Source of the DNA: Spizellomyces punctatus DAOM BR117
Taxonomy: Eukaryota
Assembly (NCBI GenBank): GCA_000182565.2
Contig: KQ257455.1
Strand: one strand, 5' to 3'
DNA length: 64,000 nt
Shown here: piece by piece, positions 16,789 through 30,700 of the stretch
How the letters are laid out: the number at the start of each line of letters is the position of its first letter
Numbering within the stretch: the first letter of the stretch is position 1
Program-made: the position numbers and the translations under genes
The notes under the pieces: generated by a model
Seen by the model: the letters and a program-made list of their open reading frames with translations, nothing else
Database searches by the model: none
What the model was told of the DNA's origin: nothing

Positions 16789-19251
16789 TCAATCCAACAA
16801 TTCATAAATATTCCTGTACTCTACGCTCAACTTGGGTCGATTGACAACCAATTGTCCTTGAATATGGAAAACTCTCGCAAGAACAATCAAATAAAAGAAG
16901 ACCACCAGCGCCACCAGAAACTCTAGCACACCAGAGATTTGTCCAGGTGCATATAATTTCACGGTGGAGAGGATAAGCCCAAAGAAGCTTCGCGGGTTCC
17001 CTTGAGCATCAATGTGGGCCGACCTCCAACGGGCATGCACGTCCGTGTCGGATCCTTTGACTGTTGCACGGGCGTACTCGGTGGCAGTCTGGAGTAGCGG
17101 TTCGACTTGGTCGATTACAAAACCTGGAATGATGCGACCCAGGACACCTTGGCCCTTTGCAATGTATGGCTTGGAAACGCGCTGAGCGCGTTTGACACCT
17201 TCTGTTTCGACGAGTTTATTGATTTGCTCAGGAACAGCTTTACCAGTCCACAGATCATAAGCGTCTTGTCGTCGCCCGTCAACAAACTAATGCAAGAGCC
17301 GTGTCAACTCCCGTGTAAATACGGATCATTAGCGTATTCTTCAAACTTACATTATTCAGGTAGTATCGTGTCAATGAGTTGATACCATCCGTCAAGCTAC
17401 CTGTCAACGTCTTCTTTCCCGTTCGCGTCACATCAGCCTTCAATGCACCGGTACCGGCATAAAGAAGGGAAATGGCATCACCCGAATCGGCCCAGAGGTT
17501 TGTAAAAGGCTTTGCAAACGGTTCCAAGGACTTGCGCATCAAGGCGACAGGGTCGCGCATATCACTGGCAATCACGCCATTGATACCAGACTCGACAGCA
17601 GGTAGTTCTGCGGTGATGGACTGGACTTGGTATGGAAGCATGTAGCGAGCAAAGATACTGCAGGTGAGGTTGGTACGGTCCAAACTGTCCAGGCACGACA
17701 CACGCGCCAGACCGGTTTGAAGTTTGGTGACGTGCAGGTCGCCCACCTCGCCTTCCGCAATAAACCACCCGCTGTTGACAAGTCTGTCCCGAACACGATC
17801 CATCAAAATCTCCATATTTCGGAAATTTCTGTTCTTGCACCACTTGTTGATCGGGAACTCTTCATACGAAACCTTTTCATCGGCAAACCGCCTAACGGTT
17901 TCCTCATACACTTTGGTCAACCGTCCCTCGAATCCAGTCACATCCAACAAGTTGACACAAACGACCTTGCCAATGTCAGCGCCTCCTTCCTTCACCGCCT
18001 TTTCGCCAATGTACTGGTGTCTGAGATCGTCATAGTGCTTCTTGATGGATGTCCATACTTTGGGCTTGTTAATGTCGGCAATAAGCAATTCCGGGCGGTA
18101 TCTCAAGTCAAGCTCCTGTCCCCAAATGGAGGGAACGGAACCGCGAACCTGAATGTACGTGGAAAGACCTTTGTAGCTGTGAAAGTCTTCGTGATAGACA
18201 ATTTGCTCCATCTCCACATTGTTCGCTGTGTTTCCATCAAAGTCGAGACCTCGACGAACGTAGCGGGTACCGACACGGCGGCGATTTAATCGGGAAATGA
18301 GGGTCAACTTGTACGGTCGAACGACCTCCTCGTTGTGCTCAAGTTCCACGGGAAGCTTAACATTCATGTCGATTGTGCCAGCAAATCCACAGATGACGTT
18401 CAAAACCCAAGGTTCGGCAGCCTGTCCAGCCTTCAAAAGAGGTCCTGCGAGATGCTTTGTGAAAAAGTATCGATCATCGATGACGGTCTTTTGTGCCTTT
18501 CCAGAACTTTTCAGATAGTTATGTTGGACAGAGTGCGTAATGTCGTAAGTCGTAGAGTAGTACAAATGTCCAGAGTTTGCGATCTGGTTGATGGATTGGA
18601 GGAGCTCTTGGTCCAGAGTGTACTGGCAGATCAAAAGTGACAAGATGTCAGCAGGATGTCATCTCTTTAAATCCATGCTACACAACAACAAACCTTTGCC
18701 AGAGTCGTCTCATCAACCTTCTTTTGCCTAATCAACTGATTGTCATTTCCAGTCCCAATAGGCAAAAGACTGGCCGCAGTGATCCTCCAAATCTTGTGAG
18801 ATTGCAATGTAGCAGCCAAGGTTCGTGCAGTAGCGACAACGAGGTATTGTGCTGGTAGCAACAACATGATAATTAATCACTTGACAGTGCTGCTGCGCCT
18901 AACGTGGGCAAGTGCCGTTGCAAATATGACACTCACCATAGACCAATTCAATAACGCCAATGACACCACAAACTTCCAAAGAGGATGTGATTCCATCGGA
19001 TGCCACTGGCAATGCCCGTTTCTTGTCTATCATCCGGTTGGGAACGTTTCTTGTTAGTACAAAAAAATGACCATTCTATGCGTCGGCTCAGGCTCACCTT
19101 GCACACTAACGCCATCTTGCATCACAACCAGCATGTCCGTAATCTCCTCTCCCGCTTTGGCATTTTTCAAAATATGAGGACTTTCCGCTAGGTACCTTCC
19201 GTCTCGTGTGCGAAATACACGGAAGGAGTCGCGATCCACCTTGTTTGACAT
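16789..19251 (-). CDS. SAC1: Sac-domain phosphoinositide phosphatase with C-terminal TM segments (Sac1-like)
   Basis: LYYSTTYDITHS, LISRLNRRRVGTRYVRRGLD..GNTANNVEMEQI, QVRGSVP, catalytic CLDSLDRTN (CX5R), YAGTGALKAD. TM segment followed by VNRPKL. Confidence 0.9.
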
Positions 19252-19616: not shown

Positions 19617-20908
19617 TTACAAGACTTCGTTCTCAATGACAGCTGCAGCTCCCATACCGATACCAACACACATTGAAATCACACCAAAGCGCTTCTTCTG
19701 ACGACGAAGCTCGGGAAGGAGAGTGGCAACTTGACGGGCACCAGTGGCACCCATTGGGTGTCCAAAAGCAATGGCACCACCCTTGGGATTCACCTTCTCA
19801 ATTGGAATACCCAATCGGTCCACACAGTAGACAGCTTGGGAGGCAAAGGCCTCGTTGATCTCGTAAATGTCAACATCCTCGATCTTGAGACCGACCTGGC
19901 GCAGCACCTCGGGAATGGCCTTTTCTGGGCCAATACCCATAATTCTTGGTGGGACACCGACAACAGAGAAACCAACCCAGCGGGCAAGGGGCTTGAGACC
20001 GAGTTTCTCGGCGACGCTACGGCGCATCATAAGGACAGATGCGGCACCATCAGTGATCTGGGACGCGTTACCGGCTGTAGTAGAGCCGTTCTTGCCGAAA
20101 GCGGGGCGAAGCTTGGCAAGAGACTCGGCAGTGGTCGCACGGATACCGTCATCCTTGCTGACAATGGAACCATCGGCAAGCTTGACGGGAACAATTTCCT
20201 CGTCAAAGAGACCTTCCTTTTGAGCCTTGGCGGCCAAGTTGTGGGAGCGGAGGGCAAACTTATCCTGAACATCACGGGAAATCTTGAACTCTGCAGCAAC
20301 GTTCTCAGATGTCTGACCCATGGGAATCAAAACATCAGCAGCTGGGCCGTATTCGAGAATGGAAGAGTCAAGGTCGGTGGGCATAGCGCCAGGACCGTAG
20401 TACATGGTCATGGACTCAACACCGGCACCGATACCAACGTCAATGTAACCAGCCTTGATGGCAGCGGCAATGTTGGCGCATGTTGTCAAACCACTGGAGC
20501 ACTGACGGTTGACAGCAGAGAGAGCGGCCGTCTCGGGGAAGCCAGCGTACAAGGCAGCCATACGGGAGGTGGTGACACCAGCGCCGGGCATGAGGACATT
20601 TCCGACCTGAATATCCTGGACAATCTTGGGGTCGATACCCGTCTTTTCAATAATGCTCTTCAAACTAGCGGCCAGAATGTACTCTGGGTGAGTTTCCTTG
20701 AAACCACCCTTTCCACCCTTGGTAAGAGGCGTACGGAGAGCAGAGACAATGACAACATCGTCGGGGCTCTTGGGAGCTTTGGCTGCATATCACAAATCAG
20801 ATCAGTTTTCGTTGACAACACAAATTGTGAATGATGTGGGAATGCCATACCAGCTCCAGTGACCGTAAGGTGGCCAGCAATGTTGTCAATACGGCGAGAG
20901 GCAGACAT
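19617..20908 (-). CDS. POT1: Peroxisomal 3-ketoacyl-CoA thiolase
   Basis: PTS2 RIDNIAGHL, VNRQCSSGL, INEAFASQ, AFGHPMGATGAR, SMCVGIGMG. Strong codon bias. Confidence 0.96.
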
Positions 20909-21269
20909 GATTGTATGTGTGATTAAAGAGATAGTTGATCAGATGAGGGAAATGATCAAGTCGGAGGGGATTGGCGTGGATGGGCCTGCCCTTTATACTC
21001 CCACCAACTGGTTAAAAAAGCCGAAGGTTTCCGGCGGTTTCCAAGTTTCATATGCCTATATTTAGTAACCTTAAATTACGTGACTCCACCTTCACATGTC
21101 TGGCAGGTCACGCGCATCTAAAAATGGAAAGTCTCGTGACGCGTGGAGATGGAGTTTTGGCAGTTTGTTATTCCGAGCAGGGCGTGTTGGAGAAGGCCTT
21201 GGGGGCTTAAAGGCTGGACGGGGATCTCATGATCATGACAAAGGGCAAAATGACAAATGGCCATGAACA

Positions 21270-21292
21270 GATGATGATGATGATGATGATGA
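21270..21292. repeat. (GAT)n microsatellite
   Basis: About 7 tandem GAT units in the POT1/DDIAS-like intergenic region. Confidence 0.8.
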
Positions 21293-21627
21293 CAAATGCA
21301 AAGTTCAAACGTGTTTGGGGGACTGAGCAATGGAGGGAATGAGATGTTGGCAAGATCTTGAGGACACCCTTTCTTGTGTGTGTGTATATTGGATGGACGA
21401 TGCTGAGAATCGTAACGCATGTGAGCTGCATGCTTGTTGAATGTTAACGTCATTGGCAGAAACATGCATGCACATTTTGTGTTATGGGAGATGTCGACAC
21501 AGATCTCCCTGATCTGCTCGCCAATATCGGACATGCGCATTACGTAAGCAGTCCGAATGTCCAGACGCGTGGAGTACGATGCTGCAAAAAGTTGGCAAGG
21601 CGAAAGCCATTAGGAAATGACCAGTTT

Positions 21628-22979
21628 ATGCCTTTTATCACCACGCTCACACCACTTCGCATTCTCCAAGCGAATTCATTTACATTCCCTTCGTGTAAGC
21701 ATTGTCTTGTAAAACTTGACTCTGAATACCAGCCAGGTTCTGTTGTCTGCCCGCGCTGTCACGCAGTGTACGCCGCTCGTGATGCGCCGAGGAGATATAG
21801 ACTACAGCTTCTAGCTTCTTGCCCGAATGGGGCCGTAAGAAAACGTGAGTACTTTCATACACACTGAATTACCAGAATAGAACATTAAGAATGTGAACAG
21901 TGACCATTTTTGGAGCTGGCCTCGATCCGATTTTCGGCCTTTCTGCTTCATCCTTTGAGACATATCTCCAAGCACCAACCGCAGTGCCACCGCAGCTTGT
22001 TCTCTCTGCTCTACACCATGTGCTCTGTGGCTCACGGTTATGGGCGTCCATACCATCCCGATATACAGTCCAAAGTTGCCAAACCTCCGAAATGGTAGAG
22101 CAAGTGCTACAGAGAGCAGACAGTGTGGAAAGCTTAGTCAAAGAGTTAAAAGGTTCTTCCACTGTGGAGAAAGTAGAGTTACGGCCAGATACAATCATTA
22201 GCAATGTCAAGCCAATGCTCGGGCTAAAGTCGACAGTAGTATCAATCCTGAACAGTAGGGACTTTTACAAGGTCAAGAAGGATGAACATGTGGTGCCTTC
22301 ACCCGCTGTCGACCTTGAAGAAACTGAATCGTGGGAACTTATCCCTCTTGCTCAGTGCAATAGTCCTGCCCAAGGTGGATTTTGGATGGATGAAGGTGCT
22401 CAGTTTCTATTCGAGGAAATTTCTTTGACTGAATTTTTGGACGCGTCCGCCGAGGCTGGAACGCCAGCAGTGGCCAAGAGTCCTTCCGTTACCCATATAT
22501 CCCATCATACTCGAAATGACGAATCTCCGCTGGATGGAGGATTGGGAGATAACATTGAGGACCTCTTCCAGGATTTGGCACTCGACGACTGGTCAGATGA
22601 GGACTATGTTATCAAATCAGATCCTGCTGCGCCCGCTGCTCAGACTCATGATAATAACCTCGGGAATGAAAAAACAAACCACTCTGAATGTGAGGATGCT
22701 GATCGTGATGATGAATATGACACCGGCGTTGAGGAACTGTTTAAGGATTTGGTGCTCGACGATTTGTCTGATGATGATAATGGTCTCAAGCGGGAGCAGC
22801 CGGATTATGCTGCTCGGACGAATGATACTCCACTGGGGCGTGGAATAACAGACCACTGTGAAGGTGAACATATCCATCCTGATGATGAATATGATTCATT
22901 GGACACGAGCTTTGACGATGTAGAGTTGATAGAGCTTTTAGAAAACCTCGCATTATCTGCTGAGGCAGGCGAACGTTAA
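21628..22979 (+). CDS. DDIAS: DDIAS/noxin-like protein: N-terminal Zn-ribbon OB fold (RPA70C-like) plus acidic C-terminus
   Basis: With intron 21845-21900 removed: LQANSFTFPSCKHCLVKL...VCPRCH...RRYRLQL...KLTIFGAGLDPIFGLSASSFETYLQ. This parallels the recalled human DDIAS N-terminus (SFIYPSCQKC..CPKC..YRYKLSL..TVFGSCLDTFFGLTA). Confidence 0.72.
22554..22901 (+). repeat. Diverged 174-bp (58-codon) tandem duplication inside the DDIAS-like CDS
   Basis: Units start at 22554 (IEDLFQDLALDDWSDED...DDEYDT) and 22728 (VEELFKDLVLDDLSDDD...DDEYDS). Confidence 0.85.
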
Positions 22980-23906
22980 CTGGATATAACTCTGTTGAAT
23001 CTCTTGCGCTATCTCGAAAAAAGCTTTCCGAACAAAATGGTATTAAGCTCGAGATTCGAGATCTAACTTTGGAATATTGGGAACCAAAATCCCAAGTAGT
23101 CTCTGGTGTCCTTGCAGTCCCCGACAGGTTGGTTCCTCACTTACTAGCCAATTCGGATTCGCGGTTGTGCCACTTGCATAGTCACAAAATTGTCACTGGC
23201 ACTGTCCTTTCCTGTAATCCTCTAGCATCATGTCCATCCCGTTACATACAGTGTGCCAAGAGACATGATAATCTTTCCAGAAACCGCCAGCCTTGGTAAA
23301 CGTTTCGTCAACAGATGTAAAACTAGGAGATGCCTTGCACGGCGACCGGTGTCGAAAAAGCTCAAAGGCGCTCACGGGAACTTATAACTTTCACGTTCCA
23401 ATGCACAAACGAATGTATAGACTTAACAGTCAACAGAATCAAGTTCTGCCCTCCTCCAGCTGGTCACATTCTCAATTTCTTATTTCTGCGTTTTTGGTTA
23501 CATATAAAGCTTGGTACGAAACCGTCAAGTTGGTAAAGTTCGCCTGAAGCAAGAAGCAGCAAGAGTACTTATCCGCATCCTAGACGGTTCATGGTGCTTC
23601 AAACAAGGTTAAAAGAATTGATCGGCTAGTAAGTGGATAACGCATAGACGCAGCTGGGTAAGATTTTGATAGCACGGAAAGGATAACTATGTGCAAAACA
23701 TACTTGCGCATAAGGATAATGTTCAGTTGAAGAAAGTTTCAAAATAGCACTTAGTCTCCTATCGGGTTGAATCCCAGCTTACGTAGTCCTGACGTGGCTT
23801 GGCCTTTTGAGCTCAGATCAGATATCCTCGCAGGCCAATTTCCTACGACCCGTTTTCCAGCTGTGGAACGGAAGCCATGCTGGCAGGAGAAGATCGACAG
23901 TCTAGG

Positions 23907-26900
23907 ATGGCTTCTCCATCGGCCCCTGCGACACCAAACTCTTATCGGTCCCGTGCCGCGAGTCAAGTTGGCGAACCTGGGCGGCCACCTTCCTCCCGTC
24001 TATCCCGGACCTCCATAGACGAAAATGCCGAAGGGGCTCTCGCCACAAAAGAAACCATACCTAACGTGCAAGATGAAGGAAGTCTGGATAGCCTTCAAAA
24101 TAAGCTCCATCAAATATCTTCCGAATCACTTGATCAAGAGACCAAACCCACGGAATTATACGATCAACATGAACGGCAGTTCCAAGAACAACAGCGGCAG
24201 AGATGGCAATTGCTTGAAAAGGAGTTGCTGGACAAAGACAAAGTTCCGACATCGTACTACACGACCTCGAAGAAGGAACAGCTAGTTTTGGAATTTGTAG
24301 CGAATTTCAATCGGCAGTATACACAGCTATTTCCGGGAAGGAAGGAGTTGCTGCTTTGCCCACCAAACCACTTTGGTATAAAGGTAAGCATCATTATAAA
24401 TGGAGTACGATTGCCATCTTCAACGAAACATTGAAACCAACATATGGTTCTCTAGAAATTTGTGTGCACCACCCTGCGACCGACCAAGCTTCCTTATAGA
24501 GAGCTCTATGACTACCGTGGTTGCGCCCGCTTCGTTGCTGAGTTTCTCTCATACAAACCGCTAGATCCCCCGCACGAATTGGTAAGATCATTCACTTTGG
24601 AAAACATGGCATCTCGGCAATTAACTGTTCTCTTAGCCACAAACGTTACCCGGACCTAGCTACACACTACGTCTCCAGCAAGGTAACTCGTTCGACTACT
24701 CTATCCTTCTAGCTTCATTGCTTCGTGGAGTCGGATATGATGCCTACGTTGTTTCCGGGTACTCAACTAGAAGGATCACGTTGATGGACGAGAGTATGGT
24801 CGAGAGTAGCACGGTTGGGATTTTACCTCCCTTTGGGCAATCAGATGCTGTGGGAAAGGCTGCTGATGCAGATACCGGAAGCGGAGATCGGGACAAAGGC
24901 ACATCCCAGGGCAAATATAAAGTTAAGCCACCTAGACAGTTAAGGAGCCAGTTTCTCGTCAAACAAGAAGAGAAAAGGCGGACCAAAGAAGAGCAAGAAG
25001 CTGAAGCGAGGCGAAAGAGGGAAGCCGAGGCGCGTGCGGTAAGACTTGTTTACTCTTTAAGCCACGCAAAACCGATGGCTCATCTTCATGTGGCCTCTGC
25101 AAGATGATGGAGGAAGATGATGATGAGCTTAAGGGCTTGCGTGTCCATGCCTGGGTACTGGTCCTGCCTGGCAAGCGAGAGGTTGCAGAGAGCTTCTTCA
25201 TAGGTACCACCGTACGGCTATACAGTCCGATCCAGCTATGAAAACTAACCTTGGCCACTTGTAGAGCCGTCAACGGGAAGAATCTACTCTACGGAAAACG
25301 AAAATTATCTCGGTGTGGAGAGTGTTTTCAGTTCGGTCAACTACTGGGTCAACATGCAAGTTTGTTACGATGGTCTCAAGGTTAGTGATTGTCGTCACTG
25401 CCTTGCATAACCATTCTTACCCAAACTTATTGGGCATTACAGGGCATTTCATTCGATCTGGGTGACAATGCAAAGTGGGAGTTTGTCCTTTTAGACAACA
25501 CGCAACCAGGGGGAGTTGACCCCCAAAATGACGACGATGATAAAGCAGCTGACAATGTATCAGACGACGAAGAAAATGAGAATGGAGATGTGGAAATTTT
25601 GGATTTGCCGCCGTCCTGGGTGGAAAAACTATCTGTTTCAAAGGAAGACTTTGAGTCTCGGTGTCCGTTGGGTGCCAAGACCGTTTTGTACAAGAACGCT
25701 AGACATGTGAGCTACCTTTGCCGGAATTCCACCTGCAGCTACGAGATACTAGGCTAATCCGCTTGTGTTATGCGCAACATTAGGAAGTCTTTGCAGAGTA
25801 CTTTAGAACTGACGGAATGGTATCTCGAACAACTTTCTTTGCGGATGAGAGCAGAGGTTTCAATGGAGAGATCCATGAAGAGTTCCGTAACCGACGGTGC
25901 GAAACGATGAGGTGTTTCTTCATTTCGGGGCTAATCTCACTGGGTACGCTGGCATTCTACAGAGACAAACTCCGGCAACGGATCCGAGTACCATATGACG
26001 GCAAAATTCATGAATTCTTTGATCCTGGGCGCCCACACGGTCTCAAGGAACATATCATAATTGATGATCGCACAAAGGAGATGCATTTTTATCCAAGCGC
26101 ACGGTCGGATGGTTTGGTCAAGCGCGTTGACGAAAGCAGCAAGGTTGATTCTTTGAGTTGCTTGCTCTGCATCCAAACCATATTGATGGCCAACACTTTA
26201 CGATAGATTCTCGAACACTTTACTGAACGAGAAGACCGTCTTGTGTATCGAAGTGTAACATTCGATGGCGAGCCGGTTCGTGATTCTAGGTCTTCACAAG
26301 TGAACTTCCCAGCATTAACTGCTACATGGACTGATTATTGCAGGACGAAGAACAGATTGAACGCGGATCCATAATCAAAATGGCTGAGAAGTTTGATCGG
26401 AATCCAGGTACGGCGAATCTCCCACCCCGTTTTCAACGTATCGGAGTATTAACTTTACAAATCCATTTGTTTACACAGATGTGCCATCCCACAAAGATGC
26501 GGCGAAGAGGACATATTTTCTCAAAGATGACAAGGTACCCATACCGATCTTCACATTCCCTAGACGCATTGAGAGACTCAATCATTATCCAGATAGGGGT
26601 CATATACCATTTCGAAGAGGGAAAGATCATCCCCTCCACTCGAGAATTTCACAAGCCAACCGCGGAGCAGAAAAACAACTTTCTTGAAATGACTGTAAGC
26701 TTTGAGGTAGCTATGGAGGTCGCCATGTTAATTGATGGACCTCTTCATGTTCACATCCTTTCATGCACAAATCAGGTGAATCCCTATGTGAAGCCGCCCA
26801 AAAAGCAATATCTTCTTGCTGAGCTGCTAGAGCTTCTCAGAGCTGAGCAAGCTTGTTTAGCCGCTGTGAAAGCATCTGATCGAGAAGTGAAAGAGATATT

Positions 26901-27602
26901 GCTGAGTAGGCAGGCAGAAGAGAAGGATGTGTCATTGGTGATATCCATCTATGATACCATTCGAAATCAAACGGTTTGTTTTCACTTTTCTCCGCTCTGC
27001 TCCCCCTTTATTGATGAACGGTGATATCTGTAGAAACTACCAAGCGAAGAAAAGAAAGAGACGTATAAGGAAGAAGAGGAAGCGAAGGCGACAGATATTG
27101 ACTACCTTTCTCCTTTCCTTGTTAATTACGTGAGTGCCATCAGCACGTAATCCCTGCAGGCTCACACTCATCCGCACCATATCTGCAGCCCAACCCCAAC
27201 CACCTCACACGCGAGGAAGCCCTCTTAGTTAAAGACGCCTGTTTGAAAGCATTCAAGGAACGTCTCATAGAGAAGGCCAACATCATTCAAGGTCGATTGG
27301 ATGAAGTCACCGCAGAGTACCAACGTCGTCAACTGGCTTACAGTCGCAACGCGGATTCGATGACTGTGGAAGAGACTGAGGAATATGTGAAGTTTTGCAA
27401 TGATGCACTGTTCAAGATACATATTCTGGAGAAGAGGCTGGCAAAGGTATCTGTTGTGTATGATCTTTCTTGTCTTTGATATAGACCTTTCTTTTAACTG
27501 AGGTTTCGTTTCCAGCATAAAGAAACCGCACCCGAGCGTTACATTGAGTTAGACGCTAGGCTCAAGGCTGATCCAAGGATGCAACCAGCATTTGCACATT
27601 GA
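23907..27602 (+). CDS. DRC7: Dynein regulatory complex subunit 7 (CCDC135/FAP50)
   Basis: FNRQYTQLFPGRKELLLCP..KFVCTTLRPT.LPY, GNSFDYSILLASLLRGVGYDAYVVSGY, RVHAWVLVLPGKREV.ESFFIEPSTG, YLGVESVF...NYWVNMQ, LDLPPSWV, CLKAFKERLIEKANIIQ. Confidence 0.93.
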
Positions 27603-27794: not shown

Positions 27795-30700
27795 TCACTT
27801 TTTGTTCAACAGGAAAATCAGGAGATTGAGATTGATCTTGGCCCCTTCCATTAACGTTATGACCGTTTCGTTATTGTATTGAGCGGCCAACAAATCCTCC
27901 AGTCGTAGCTCCATCTTATCTTGCATTTTGACACCGAAAAACGCGGCCTCAATGTTGAAAATACCGGCCTCGTCAGAGGAGATGGTGAGTGTTATTTGTC
28001 CGTATTTGCTTGGAGAGACGTCGTCGAGAGATATCAACACGCCTTTACGGTGTAGTTCCGCTGCAGTATATTTGAAGGAGCCAAACTTTGGTACTTTTCC
28101 TGATTTTGCCAGAGCCCGCTGGTGTGCATATTGGCGGGTGAATGGTAAAGGACGTTTGCCTTTGCTGTTTTTATGAATACATATATGAGTACTGTATTAT
28201 GCCGTATGGCAAGCAGAAGGCACTTACTGTTTCTTGTTTCCAAGTTGTGACATGCATGCACTGATGTAGTCGTGATACGATTTCTTTTGATCTTCCAGGT
28301 AAACCGCCTTCTCTTCCAGATTTTTGAGTGTATTTCGCAAAGACAGCAATTCTTTCCGGCGTCGTGATCTTCGTCGAGACTTTGTAAGCATGTCTTTAGC
28401 GATCGAGTTGAGCATGTCTTGATATTGATTGGATTTTGTGACTTGGCCTTCTGCTTCAAGTTTTGCCATGTTCTCCAAAGCTCGACGTTTGAGGCTGAAG
28501 AAGGTCGTGCTGTTTGTCAAAGTGCGCAATCAGATCATGGCCCAGGACTTGAACTAGACTGGAGTGATCCGTACCTTCCCCCTTCACCTTTCAGTAAGCT
28601 CGATTGACTCGCATATAAACCACGGCTGCCGACACTGTTTCGAGCGCCCGCCAAATTATTAACACTTCCCGCAAGACCTTGACTGCTCCCCGTCATGCTT
28701 CCGGAAGCATTCAGAGTATCTCTGCTTTGATTCAATTGTCTTGACTGGAATTCTTTTTTGGCGTCCAGCTGCTGTGCTTCTAAAGCCAAGTATTCTTGGA
28801 ATATAGACTCTTCCTTCTCGGTTACGGGAGCTTCGAGAATGTCAAGGAGATTCTTCCCTGTTTGTACTCGAATGACAGCCATAATGTAGCGTTTTGCTTC
28901 GTTCCATAAGAGTCTCACTCGGGCATCGCGTTCGTCTGGTGGACCGGCAAACAGCAATCCATATTCAGTTAAAGTCCACAAATGCAGTCGGGGCATCCTT
29001 TTACTTTACCTTCAAGGGTGGGGAACCTATTTCGAAGGCGGAGTTCAATCTCAGGACCAGAATCATCAACAACCGTTGGAACTGGAGACAAATCTGCAAG
29101 CACTAAACGTAGATTATCCTTTGCATCATCCGCCTAGATGCACACAATCAGTGAGAATGATAGGCGATTACATGCAGGACTACGATAACGTACCACATCA
29201 TCCAGATTTTCAACCAATGTTTTGTGAAGTTGGAAAATTTCTCCAGAGGATAGTTTAACTGTCGGTCGCTGTTTCTGTGCCATACTAGCGTACTCGCTCA
29301 TTGCTTCAGCGTATTCATCCTCCAGTTCAGCATCGACCGTCGTCGCTAATATCAATAGTCACATTATTTCCATGCACCACAGTCGCGAATGGGTTCTGGC
29401 TATTACCTTCTTTAAAAATGGTCATGAAGGTCTTAAACTTTTCAGAAATGTAGGGATTCAGCTCCGCCAGGTTGGGATCATCATTGGGAAAACCTTTTCC
29501 GACCGACATCTGATGGAGGGTTTTTGCAATCTATAATGCAATGCTAGGGTTATACGAAGATAAGAATAGCCACCGTCTGCAGATGAAGAAGATATACCTC
29601 AGCCAGATTCTTTCGTTGCGTAGGTGAAAGGGCCGATGCAACCGACATGTCAATAACTTCGAACTGCTCGGGCTGACTGCAAACATATTTCTGATTAGAA
29701 GCGCTGGAGGAAATTACACATGCCGACAGTCAAGGGTCCTCACATGATAGCGGGACTAATGTAACGGTAGTAGATGAAATTGCCGCCAACGAGTCGTACG
29801 ATTTCATCATCGTTTCCGGGGAACCTTTTCTGAAAGCGGAGATAGCTCAGTTCCCTATTCTGTGCTCTTCCATTGAGATCTCCAAATACCTGTAATGCTT
29901 CCTTAAGTTGCCTGGCAATATATCGCAGACCGAAAGGCATGTCCTTGGTCGACCGGGATAGAGCCGATACGAATTCCCCAGTAATCTGCTTTAGTTTCGC
30001 AATGTCTGCAAATGAGAATCATTTTCTGTTAATTCGATAATGAGACGGGTACACTAGCTAATCATTCCTTACGTTGAACTTGGATTCTCTGCACTTCGGG
30101 ATCCTCCGCAGCCTGCTTTGATGTCACGTCGTAGGGGCGCTGGCTTTTCTTTCCTGTTTGGATCTCCTCCGCTGCAATCAAGGTTCTGTAAATCTGATCC
30201 CATAGAATAAGTTCGTAATTTCTTGTTTCAATAATTCATTGGTTTGCAACTAACCGCAAGTGGTTCTGTCTCCAAGTTAAGGTCTTGATTGTTAAGGATG
30301 GATTTGACAAAAGGTTGTGCCAAATTTCGGAGATAATCTGCGTTTCCTCCACGCCTTTCGATGCGTGTAAGCTTGCAGTATTGTAAGGCTATTCGGGAAT
30401 AAGGCCCACATACCGTGTGTAATCAACAACAAGCTTAATAAAGAAGGGATCTGCACGCCAGAATTCATCCAAGCTGGTGATGTCCTCCACCTCAAGTTTG
30501 ATTGCTTCCCGGAACAAACTCAACAGAAGCGATTCCACCCGTCTGTCTTGAGCATAACCGTACAGCGACAGTACCACCTTCGTCAAGAACTTTGTTGCAG
30601 TGTTACCGCTCATCTTGTTCATGGTAAAAACAAGTCTAGCCAGATACTGTGGCTGGGTTTGCAGTAAATAGAATAGTTCTTCATAGTGTTCGCGCTTGGA

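Follow-up and report, generated by a model that had tools for sequence, protein, structure and literature searches.

The stretch of DNA analysed here (the window, 64,000 nucleotides of the soil chytrid Spizellomyces punctatus DAOM BR117) carries SPPG_04270, a gene at 21628–22979 that encodes 431 amino acids (record P0003, named as an uncharacterised protein at NCBI) and whose features are collected in Table 1. Its ATG starts at 21628 and its stop codon ends at 22979. The intron (34% GC) has the donor GTGAGT at 21845 and the acceptor CAG ending at 21900; the spliced exons are identical to P0003 over 431 aa, and without splicing the frame meets a stop after 79 aa. Splicing of this intron, assumed in an earlier sequence-only reading of the window, was borne out by one contig of run X1, which joins 21844 to 21901 exactly and with GT..AG ends (depth 2.1, short side 24 letters). 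X1 is taken to be RNA by guess, and no listed run that covers the stretch is on record as RNA; the joint is absent from the other three of the four runs examined. From run X9, 211 raw RNA reads (from the ∼ 6% of the run read) were placed, concentrated on 22600–23250, and none of these 211 crosses the intron.

A thiolase gene (19617–20909, minus strand) stands head-to-head with SPPG_04270 and shows no sign of a functional link. A SacI phosphatase domain (17279–18658, minus), the gene for flagellar DRC7 (about 23811–27500, plus) and a RasGAP_C (IQGAP-like) exon (27795–28196, minus) are ordinary neighbours, and an imperfect (GAT)n microsatellite lies between genes at 21262–21303. The hexamer ACGCGT, which we take to be an MCB-like element, occurs nine times in the window, a number at chance level; two of the nine (21139–21144 and the one in Table 1) fall in the 720-bp divergent upstream region, and G1/S control of SPPG_04270 is possible.

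Table 1. Features of the SPPG_04270 locus (positions in the window)
Feature	Position	Strand	Remarks
MCB-like element, ACGCGT	21565..21570	.	63 nt upstream of the SPPG_04270 ATG; lead only
Exon 1	21628..21844	+	residues 1–72 plus one base; first OB strands and Zn ribbon
DDIAS-type Zn-OB domain, residues 1–195, RPA70C-like fold	21628..22268	+	phmmer, profile comparison, predicted structure
Cys4 zinc site, C23, C26, C41, C44	21694..21759	+	alignment columns
Basic residues K29, R56, R58	21712..21801	+	aligned to human R31, R56, K58
Intron, 56 nt, GT..AG	21845..21900	+	skipped in one X1 contig; splice model equals P0003
Exon 2	21901..22979	+	remainder of residue 73 through 431, with stop; X9 reads mainly 22600–23250
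Tail motif A, residues 240–255	22401..22448	+	common to some Spizellomycetales
NES-like acidic motif, copy 1, residues 291–300	22554..22583	+	
Tandem duplication, 174 nt (58 aa), 74–77% identical	22555..22894	+	multiplied the NES-like motif
NES-like acidic motif, copy 2, residues 349–358	22728..22757	+	
NES-like acidic motif, C-terminal copy, residues 415–424	22926..22955	+	copy best conserved among chytrids

Identity and fold of the N-terminal domain

The sequence-only reading had linked SPPG_04270 to animal DDIAS through a set of N-terminal motifs, all of which are present in the spliced protein: CxxC (C23/C26), CxxC (C41/C44), SFTFPSC, RYRLQL and TIFGAGLDPIFGLSA. A phmmer search with residues 1–195 against 1.84 billion representative proteins gave 44 matches at E ≤ 1e-3, the query included, and reached the human DDIAS isoform cluster with an E-value of 2.2e-7. 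Thirty of the 44 were checked; nine are fungal, ten are DDIAS or noxin, seven are uncharacterised invertebrate proteins and four have no species name, and none of the 30 bears the name RPA1, SHLD2 or SPIDR. Two mollusc records among the matches carry UniRef's generic RPA C-terminal domain label. In the opposite direction, human DDIAS gave two matches in the 24-Mb genome, both in SPPG_04270 (exon 2, E 0.002; exon 1, E 0.11), and the canonical RPA1 of S. punctatus is a separate gene on contig C4. The reciprocal best match is thus DDIAS and not RPA1, which supports the proposed identity. A profile of 11 fungal rows and one unnamed row shares 122 aligned columns with an animal-type profile built from 10 rows (probability 99.5, E 3.5e-23); against the zinc-ribbon exon of the genome's RPA1 it aligned over 36 columns (E 2.9e-5), a single exon that is not like-for-like with DDIAS. 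Structure searches of the Atlas put a DDIAS cluster at the top for both SPPG_04270 (TM 0.70; RPA1 clusters ≤ 0.55) and its Basidiobolus relative (TM 0.65). We conclude with high confidence that SPPG_04270 is the fungal orthologue of animal DDIAS. Pfam, its SHLD2 and SPIDR families included, finds nothing in the spliced protein, a possible reason for the lack of a name; exon 1 alone matches PF08646 (E 0.022). A PDB sequence search gave one chance match only.

It is very unlikely that SPPG_04270 is some other RPA70C-like paralogue (an RPA1 fragment, SHLD2, SPIDR or a CDC24-type OB protein) that merely resembles DDIAS. Such proteins do have this fold in common, fungal tails fail to align with animal DDIAS tails, and Pfam finds PF08646 in 40 of the 44 aligned relatives, DUF4503 weakly in two and SHLD2_C in one; however, the best matches with DDIAS are reciprocal, the DDIAS alignment is far longer than that to the single RPA1 exon, and RPA1 and a CDC24_OB2 protein are distinct genes in the genome. 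Genome searches for SPIDR (DUF4503) and SHLD2_C gave no match, and neither did any control, so that they speak neither for nor against such genes. The CDC24-type multi-OB protein (L018; G000:C8, ∼ 528600–530900, minus; CDC24_OB2 E 1e-11) also has a weak RPA70C/CDC24_OB3 zinc-ribbon domain and is another RPA-like factor in S. punctatus.

AlphaFold2, given the 44-row alignment, modelled residues 1–190 at a pLDDT mostly near 90; the tail behind them is disordered apart from short helices (248–256, 291–298 and 412–430). The RPA70C-like fold that had been proposed from the motifs reappears in this model: its best structural matches are RPA70 OB-C and Teb1 OB-C, with Z 10.7, rmsd 3.1, 131 aligned residues and Foldseek E 4e-5 for Teb1, and U. 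maydis RPA70 gave a Z of 10.2. The single OB domain is N-terminal, and residues 1–200 have a net charge of +8. All four zinc cysteines align (human C25, C28, C41 and C44 with fungal C23, C26, C41 and C44), as do three of the four ssDNA-binding residues (human R31, R56 and K58 with fungal K29, R56 and R58); human R3 has no aligned residue. In human DDIAS, C25A/C28A is reported to abolish ssDNA binding (10.1101/2025.09.09.675193) and R3A/R31A/R56A/K58A to abolish binding and rescue (10.1101/2025.09.09.675108). Because zinc and basic residues that are essential in human DDIAS are conserved, the N-terminal Zn-OB of SPPG_04270 very probably binds ssDNA as the human protein does.

Distribution among fungi

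Fungal relatives were found in Powellomyces, Gaertneriomyces, Geranomyces, Fimicolochytrium, Rhizophlyctis, Polychytrium, Diversispora, Dentiscutata and Basidiobolus; the four whose phylum was checked belong to Chytridiomycota, Glomeromycota and Basidiobolomycota. The S. palustris orthologue is 84% identical to SPPG_04270 over its length. Retention in a zoosporic fungus, as first proposed, holds for the chytrids but is too narrow, since the non-zoosporic Diversispora, Dentiscutata and Basidiobolus have the gene as well. In a tree of 43 of the 44 rows (the N-truncated Fimicolochytrium row was dropped; there is no outgroup and several branches are long) one branch (95/84) sets the ten fungal rows apart from all others and the chytrids lie together, which fits vertical descent as far as an unrooted tree allows. 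No Dikarya record was seen among the 30 of 44 matches checked, a single-sequence search being too weak to show absence from yeasts, and word-index searches yielded no protein beyond those of the two Spizellomyces species and Basidiobolus. Atlas feature matches to short plant PF08646 clusters (0.91 and 0.89 for SPPG_04270, 0.89 and 0.88 for the Basidiobolus relative) may point to a broader distribution, or may instead derive from RPA. Two divergent DDIAS-like proteins, P0010 (ENA) and P0033 (JGI/ENA), have tails that are neither animal nor clearly chytrid and may come from other eukaryote groups.

Our literature searches, with most subscription papers outside their range, found no paper on fungal DDIAS; the DDIAS link of these fungal proteins may already be present in family databases or orthogroup tables. 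Neither 'fung' nor 'yeast' appears in the two human-cell DDIAS preprints, one of which aligns vertebrates only. Other repair genes of animals, among them the Fanconi pathway, are known from early-diverging fungi (PMC11061109), and a fungal DDIAS is therefore only moderately surprising; neither DDIAS nor TOPBP1 occurs in that survey. A fungal orthologue dates DDIAS to at least the opisthokont ancestor, and it separates an old part of the protein, the ssDNA-binding domain, from a changed part, the recruitment tail.

The acidic tail

The long acidic disordered tail that had been described from the sequence was found again on closer analysis: from residue 201 onwards it has a net charge of −51, lies mostly at pLDDT < 50 and consists of 27% Asp+Glu, compared with 10–19% in animal-type tails. 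Human DDIAS reaches mitotic lesions via phospho-motifs that bind TOPBP1, with the BRCT7/8 consensus pS/T-x-D/E-L-Y/F. We counted this consensus in 22 animal-type tails (14 from named animals, eight by likeness) and 12 others (ten fungal, two unnamed), the expected counts being taken from 1000 shuffles of each tail. The long animal-type tails contain 50 matches against 1.9 expected, distributed over 22/22 tails, whereas the non-animal tails contain none against 0.4 expected (0/12), SPPG_04270 included. Because the phospho-motif is absent from its tail, SPPG_04270 should not be recruited by animal-type docking on TOPBP1 BRCT7/8.

A further acidic motif of animal DDIAS tails, LPxSExLxxF, extends from vertebrates to echinoderms and a mollusc (P0014, P0015, P0020, P0021, P0046 and others) and is present in 13/23 animal-type tails by the strict pattern; in a cat-family protein its position, about residue 414, falls outside the four-motif region mapped in the preprint. 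Residues 242–253 of the SPPG_04270 tail were considered as a counterpart and rejected, as a profile from the 13/23 animal tails picks the site in no chytrid.

What is new here is the tail, in which the animal docking motif is missing and a NES-like motif is repeated instead. SPPG_04270 has four matches to φ-x3-φ-x2-φ-x-φ in its tail (0.32 expected, p 0.001), in an acidic and disordered context, and three of these are clear acidic copies (Table 1). Class-1a NES spacing is found 23 times in the 12 non-animal tails (3.4 expected; at least one match in 10/12) and ten times in the 22 animal-type tails (24.5 expected; 7/22 with a match), counts for which the pattern was chosen after the motif had been seen and the rows are related, the two Spizellomyces proteins being 84% identical with copies derived from one duplication. 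This duplication, to which the sequence-only reading made no reference, is also present in the S. palustris protein. Searched with a profile of the three copies, Powellomyces, Geranomyces, Rhizophlyctis and Fimicolochytrium show the motif (p 0.003–0.013), as does one of the 22 animal tails (p 0.037); Polychytrium, the two Glomeromycota and Basidiobolus do not. The terminal φ-x-φ spacing is kept across the chytrids and Diversispora. Motif A is significant among chytrids only for Powellomyces (p 0.003). The Basidiobolus tail has no NES-like motif; in its place five [VILF]xx[ST]P sites are present, so recruitment may vary within fungi. In the B. ranarum protein (P0044), residues 477–582 hold three [VI]-[AP]-E-T-P sites, which presumably resemble TOPBP1 BRCT phospho-ligands. 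Atg8-interacting-like motifs are frequent in the tails by raw occurrence.

True NESs favour class-1a spacing, acidic spacers and disorder; matches to the consensus are often false (of 40 peptides assayed, 16 failed to bind CRM1), and an all-helix match is a typical mark of false positives (PMC3442415). Residues 412–430, which include the C-terminal copy, form one helix in the predicted model. Complex prediction with the CRM1 groove exon (93 aa) and tail residues 398–431 scored 0.02 in a run with no alignments and no controls, and speaks neither for nor against CRM1 binding. The S. punctatus CRM1 (L020:1369–1647, minus; G000:C17, ∼ 495100–495400) has Thr in the NES groove where many relatives have Cys; we take this to be the leptomycin B-reactive position and predict insensitivity to the drug.

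Recruitment and comparison with known systems

In the S. punctatus TOPBP1 gene (L015; G000:C6, ∼ 188200–193800, minus), BRCT6 matches its human counterpart at E 2e-18 and two exons of BRCT7/8 do so at E 1e-5 and 2e-4; a TopBP1-type BRCT lies at the C-terminus, and an RTEK stretch matches human RNEK at the phosphate-binding lysine (K1317-like; human numbering inferred). Near C6:190688, 73 residues before BRCT6, lies a CIP2A-binding-like motif with the spacing of F837, D838, L843 and L846, which are CIP2A-binding residues of human TOPBP1 (PMC10566317), and with Thr at V839; 56/20000 linker shuffles match it, the pattern having been set after the site was seen. For CIP2A itself there was no CIP2A_N match above cut-off in an exon-level search, which can miss divergent, intron-split genes. 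A weak sub-cut-off match on contig C20 was discarded as spurious, being antisense to a 1006-aa RING-protein ORF. Yeast Dpb11/Rad4 is not known to have BRCT6, BRCT7/8, the K1317-like lysine or the CIP2A-binding-like motif. Since the BRCT7 lysine and the CIP2A-binding-like motif are kept, an animal-like complex may persist, and, given such an animal-type TOPBP1, chytrids may also have a divergent CIP2A. On the TOPBP1 side the genome resembles animals; on the DDIAS side the animal docking motif is missing.

Human DDIAS has been described as the ssDNA-binding effector of TOPBP1–CIP2A in mitosis (two bioRxiv preprints, 10.1101/2025.09.09.675193 and 10.1101/2025.09.09.675108). By analogy, the most likely role of SPPG_04270 would be to protect ssDNA gaps from incomplete replication, a role that would matter in mitosis; we consider the case for it evenly poised. 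The Zn-OB domain would bind and protect the gaps that incomplete replication leaves, and the three acidic Leu-rich tail helices would serve as class-1a NES for CRM1. CRM1 export would keep SPPG_04270 outside the interphase nucleus, and the leaky or fenestrated envelope of mitosis would give it access to chromosomes. We propose this gating because there is a precedent in human CIP2A and an opening in S. punctatus: CRM1 export keeps human CIP2A from TOPBP1 until envelope breakdown and so confines the pathway to mitosis (10.1101/2021.02.08.430274), and as the synchronous, about 5-minute mitoses of S. punctatus begin, H2B escapes from the nucleus, which has been read as fenestration (PMC7213984). 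The overall chain of an ssDNA-binding DDIAS orthologue, non-animal recruitment and a tail that is probably an export signal is, in our judgement, somewhat favoured. Export as the means of holding the protein back until mitosis is put forward tentatively. That mitosis-specific ssDNA protection predates the animal–fungal split, with chytrids gating it by export signals on DDIAS and not by CDK1/PLK1 phospho-docking on TOPBP1 BRCT7/8, is a speculative and rather doubtful extension. The uncharacterised fungal pathway of the sequence-only reading likewise stands as an inferred one. Several observations count against this chain of binding and export: human R3 is unmatched, human DDIAS carrying a tag is found mostly throughout the interphase nucleus, matches to the NES consensus frequently prove false and the C-terminal copy is modelled within one helix, and Basidiobolus lacks the motif altogether. 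DDIAS has been reported to be cytoplasmic in some cells (review PMC10238375).

The acidic helices could instead dock on a basic cleft, for instance that of RPA70N, and so recruit the DDIAS orthologue directly to RPA-coated ssDNA. RPA70N ligands are generally acidic amphipathic helices in disordered regions, as the tail motifs are, the RPA1 of this genome has an RPA70N domain and multiple copies of the motif would give avidity. We nevertheless consider this unlikely, as the terminal φ-x-φ, a NES hallmark, is kept across chytrids and Diversispora, and that spacing is not known to be needed for RPA70N binding. Conservation of the animal mechanism, with SPPG_04270 joining TOPBP1 (and a divergent CIP2A) by means of motifs that are degenerate or independent of phosphorylation, is improbable too. 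The domains, lysine and CIP2A-binding-like motif of TOPBP1 would allow it, copies 1 and 2 have the animal motif's [DE]-L-F core and a VxKSP site at residues 263–267 is kept in both Spizellomyces species; but Ile, Val or Phe stands in place of the phospho-acceptor Ser/Thr, other chytrids do not keep the [DE]-L-F core, the full consensus is missing from all 12 non-animal tails and CIP2A_N gave nothing above cut-off. That the tail is mainly a DNA mimic folding back on the basic OB groove to tune ssDNA binding would suit the opposite charges of the two parts (+8 and −51), but is most improbable because charge by itself leaves the conserved hydrophobic spacing unexplained and most of the tail lacks confident packing in the model.

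S. punctatus can be transformed, and its fast, synchronous mitoses can be imaged live (PMC7213984). It therefore offers a microbial system for studying whether the protection of ssDNA in mitosis is of ancient origin and by what means it is limited to that phase.

Compared with the C-terminal OB of RPA1 (RPA70) and with Tetrahymena Teb1 OB-C, the SPPG_04270 domain has the fold and zinc ribbon in common (Z 8–10.7) at 12–19% identity; RPA1, however, has four OB domains with OB-C at the C-terminus, whereas in SPPG_04270 one such domain stands alone at the N-terminus. The OB domains of SHLD2 and SPIDR are related Zn-OB folds, with faint Pfam cross-matches in 3/44 relatives, but SPPG_04270 has no match to them and neither name was found among the 30 relatives checked. 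Human DDIAS (noxin, C11orf82) and SPPG_04270 both have an N-terminal RPA70C-type OB, the Cys4 site, the basic residues and a long disordered tail. The fungal protein is shorter (431 aa versus 998 aa), has no counterpart of R3, and carries repeated NES-like helices instead of pS/T-x-[DE]-L-[FY]. Of the animal CIP2A–TOPBP1–DDIAS mitotic module, S. punctatus possesses the DDIAS orthologue together with a TOPBP1 that includes BRCT6, BRCT7/8 and the CIP2A-binding-like motif; the DDIAS-side docking motif is absent, and CIP2A is unmatched in what is a weak test. Judged by its sequence, SPPG_04270 belongs in the DDIAS family and not in the animal module. The NES-like signals lie on the fungal DDIAS itself, whereas in humans the exported part is CIP2A.
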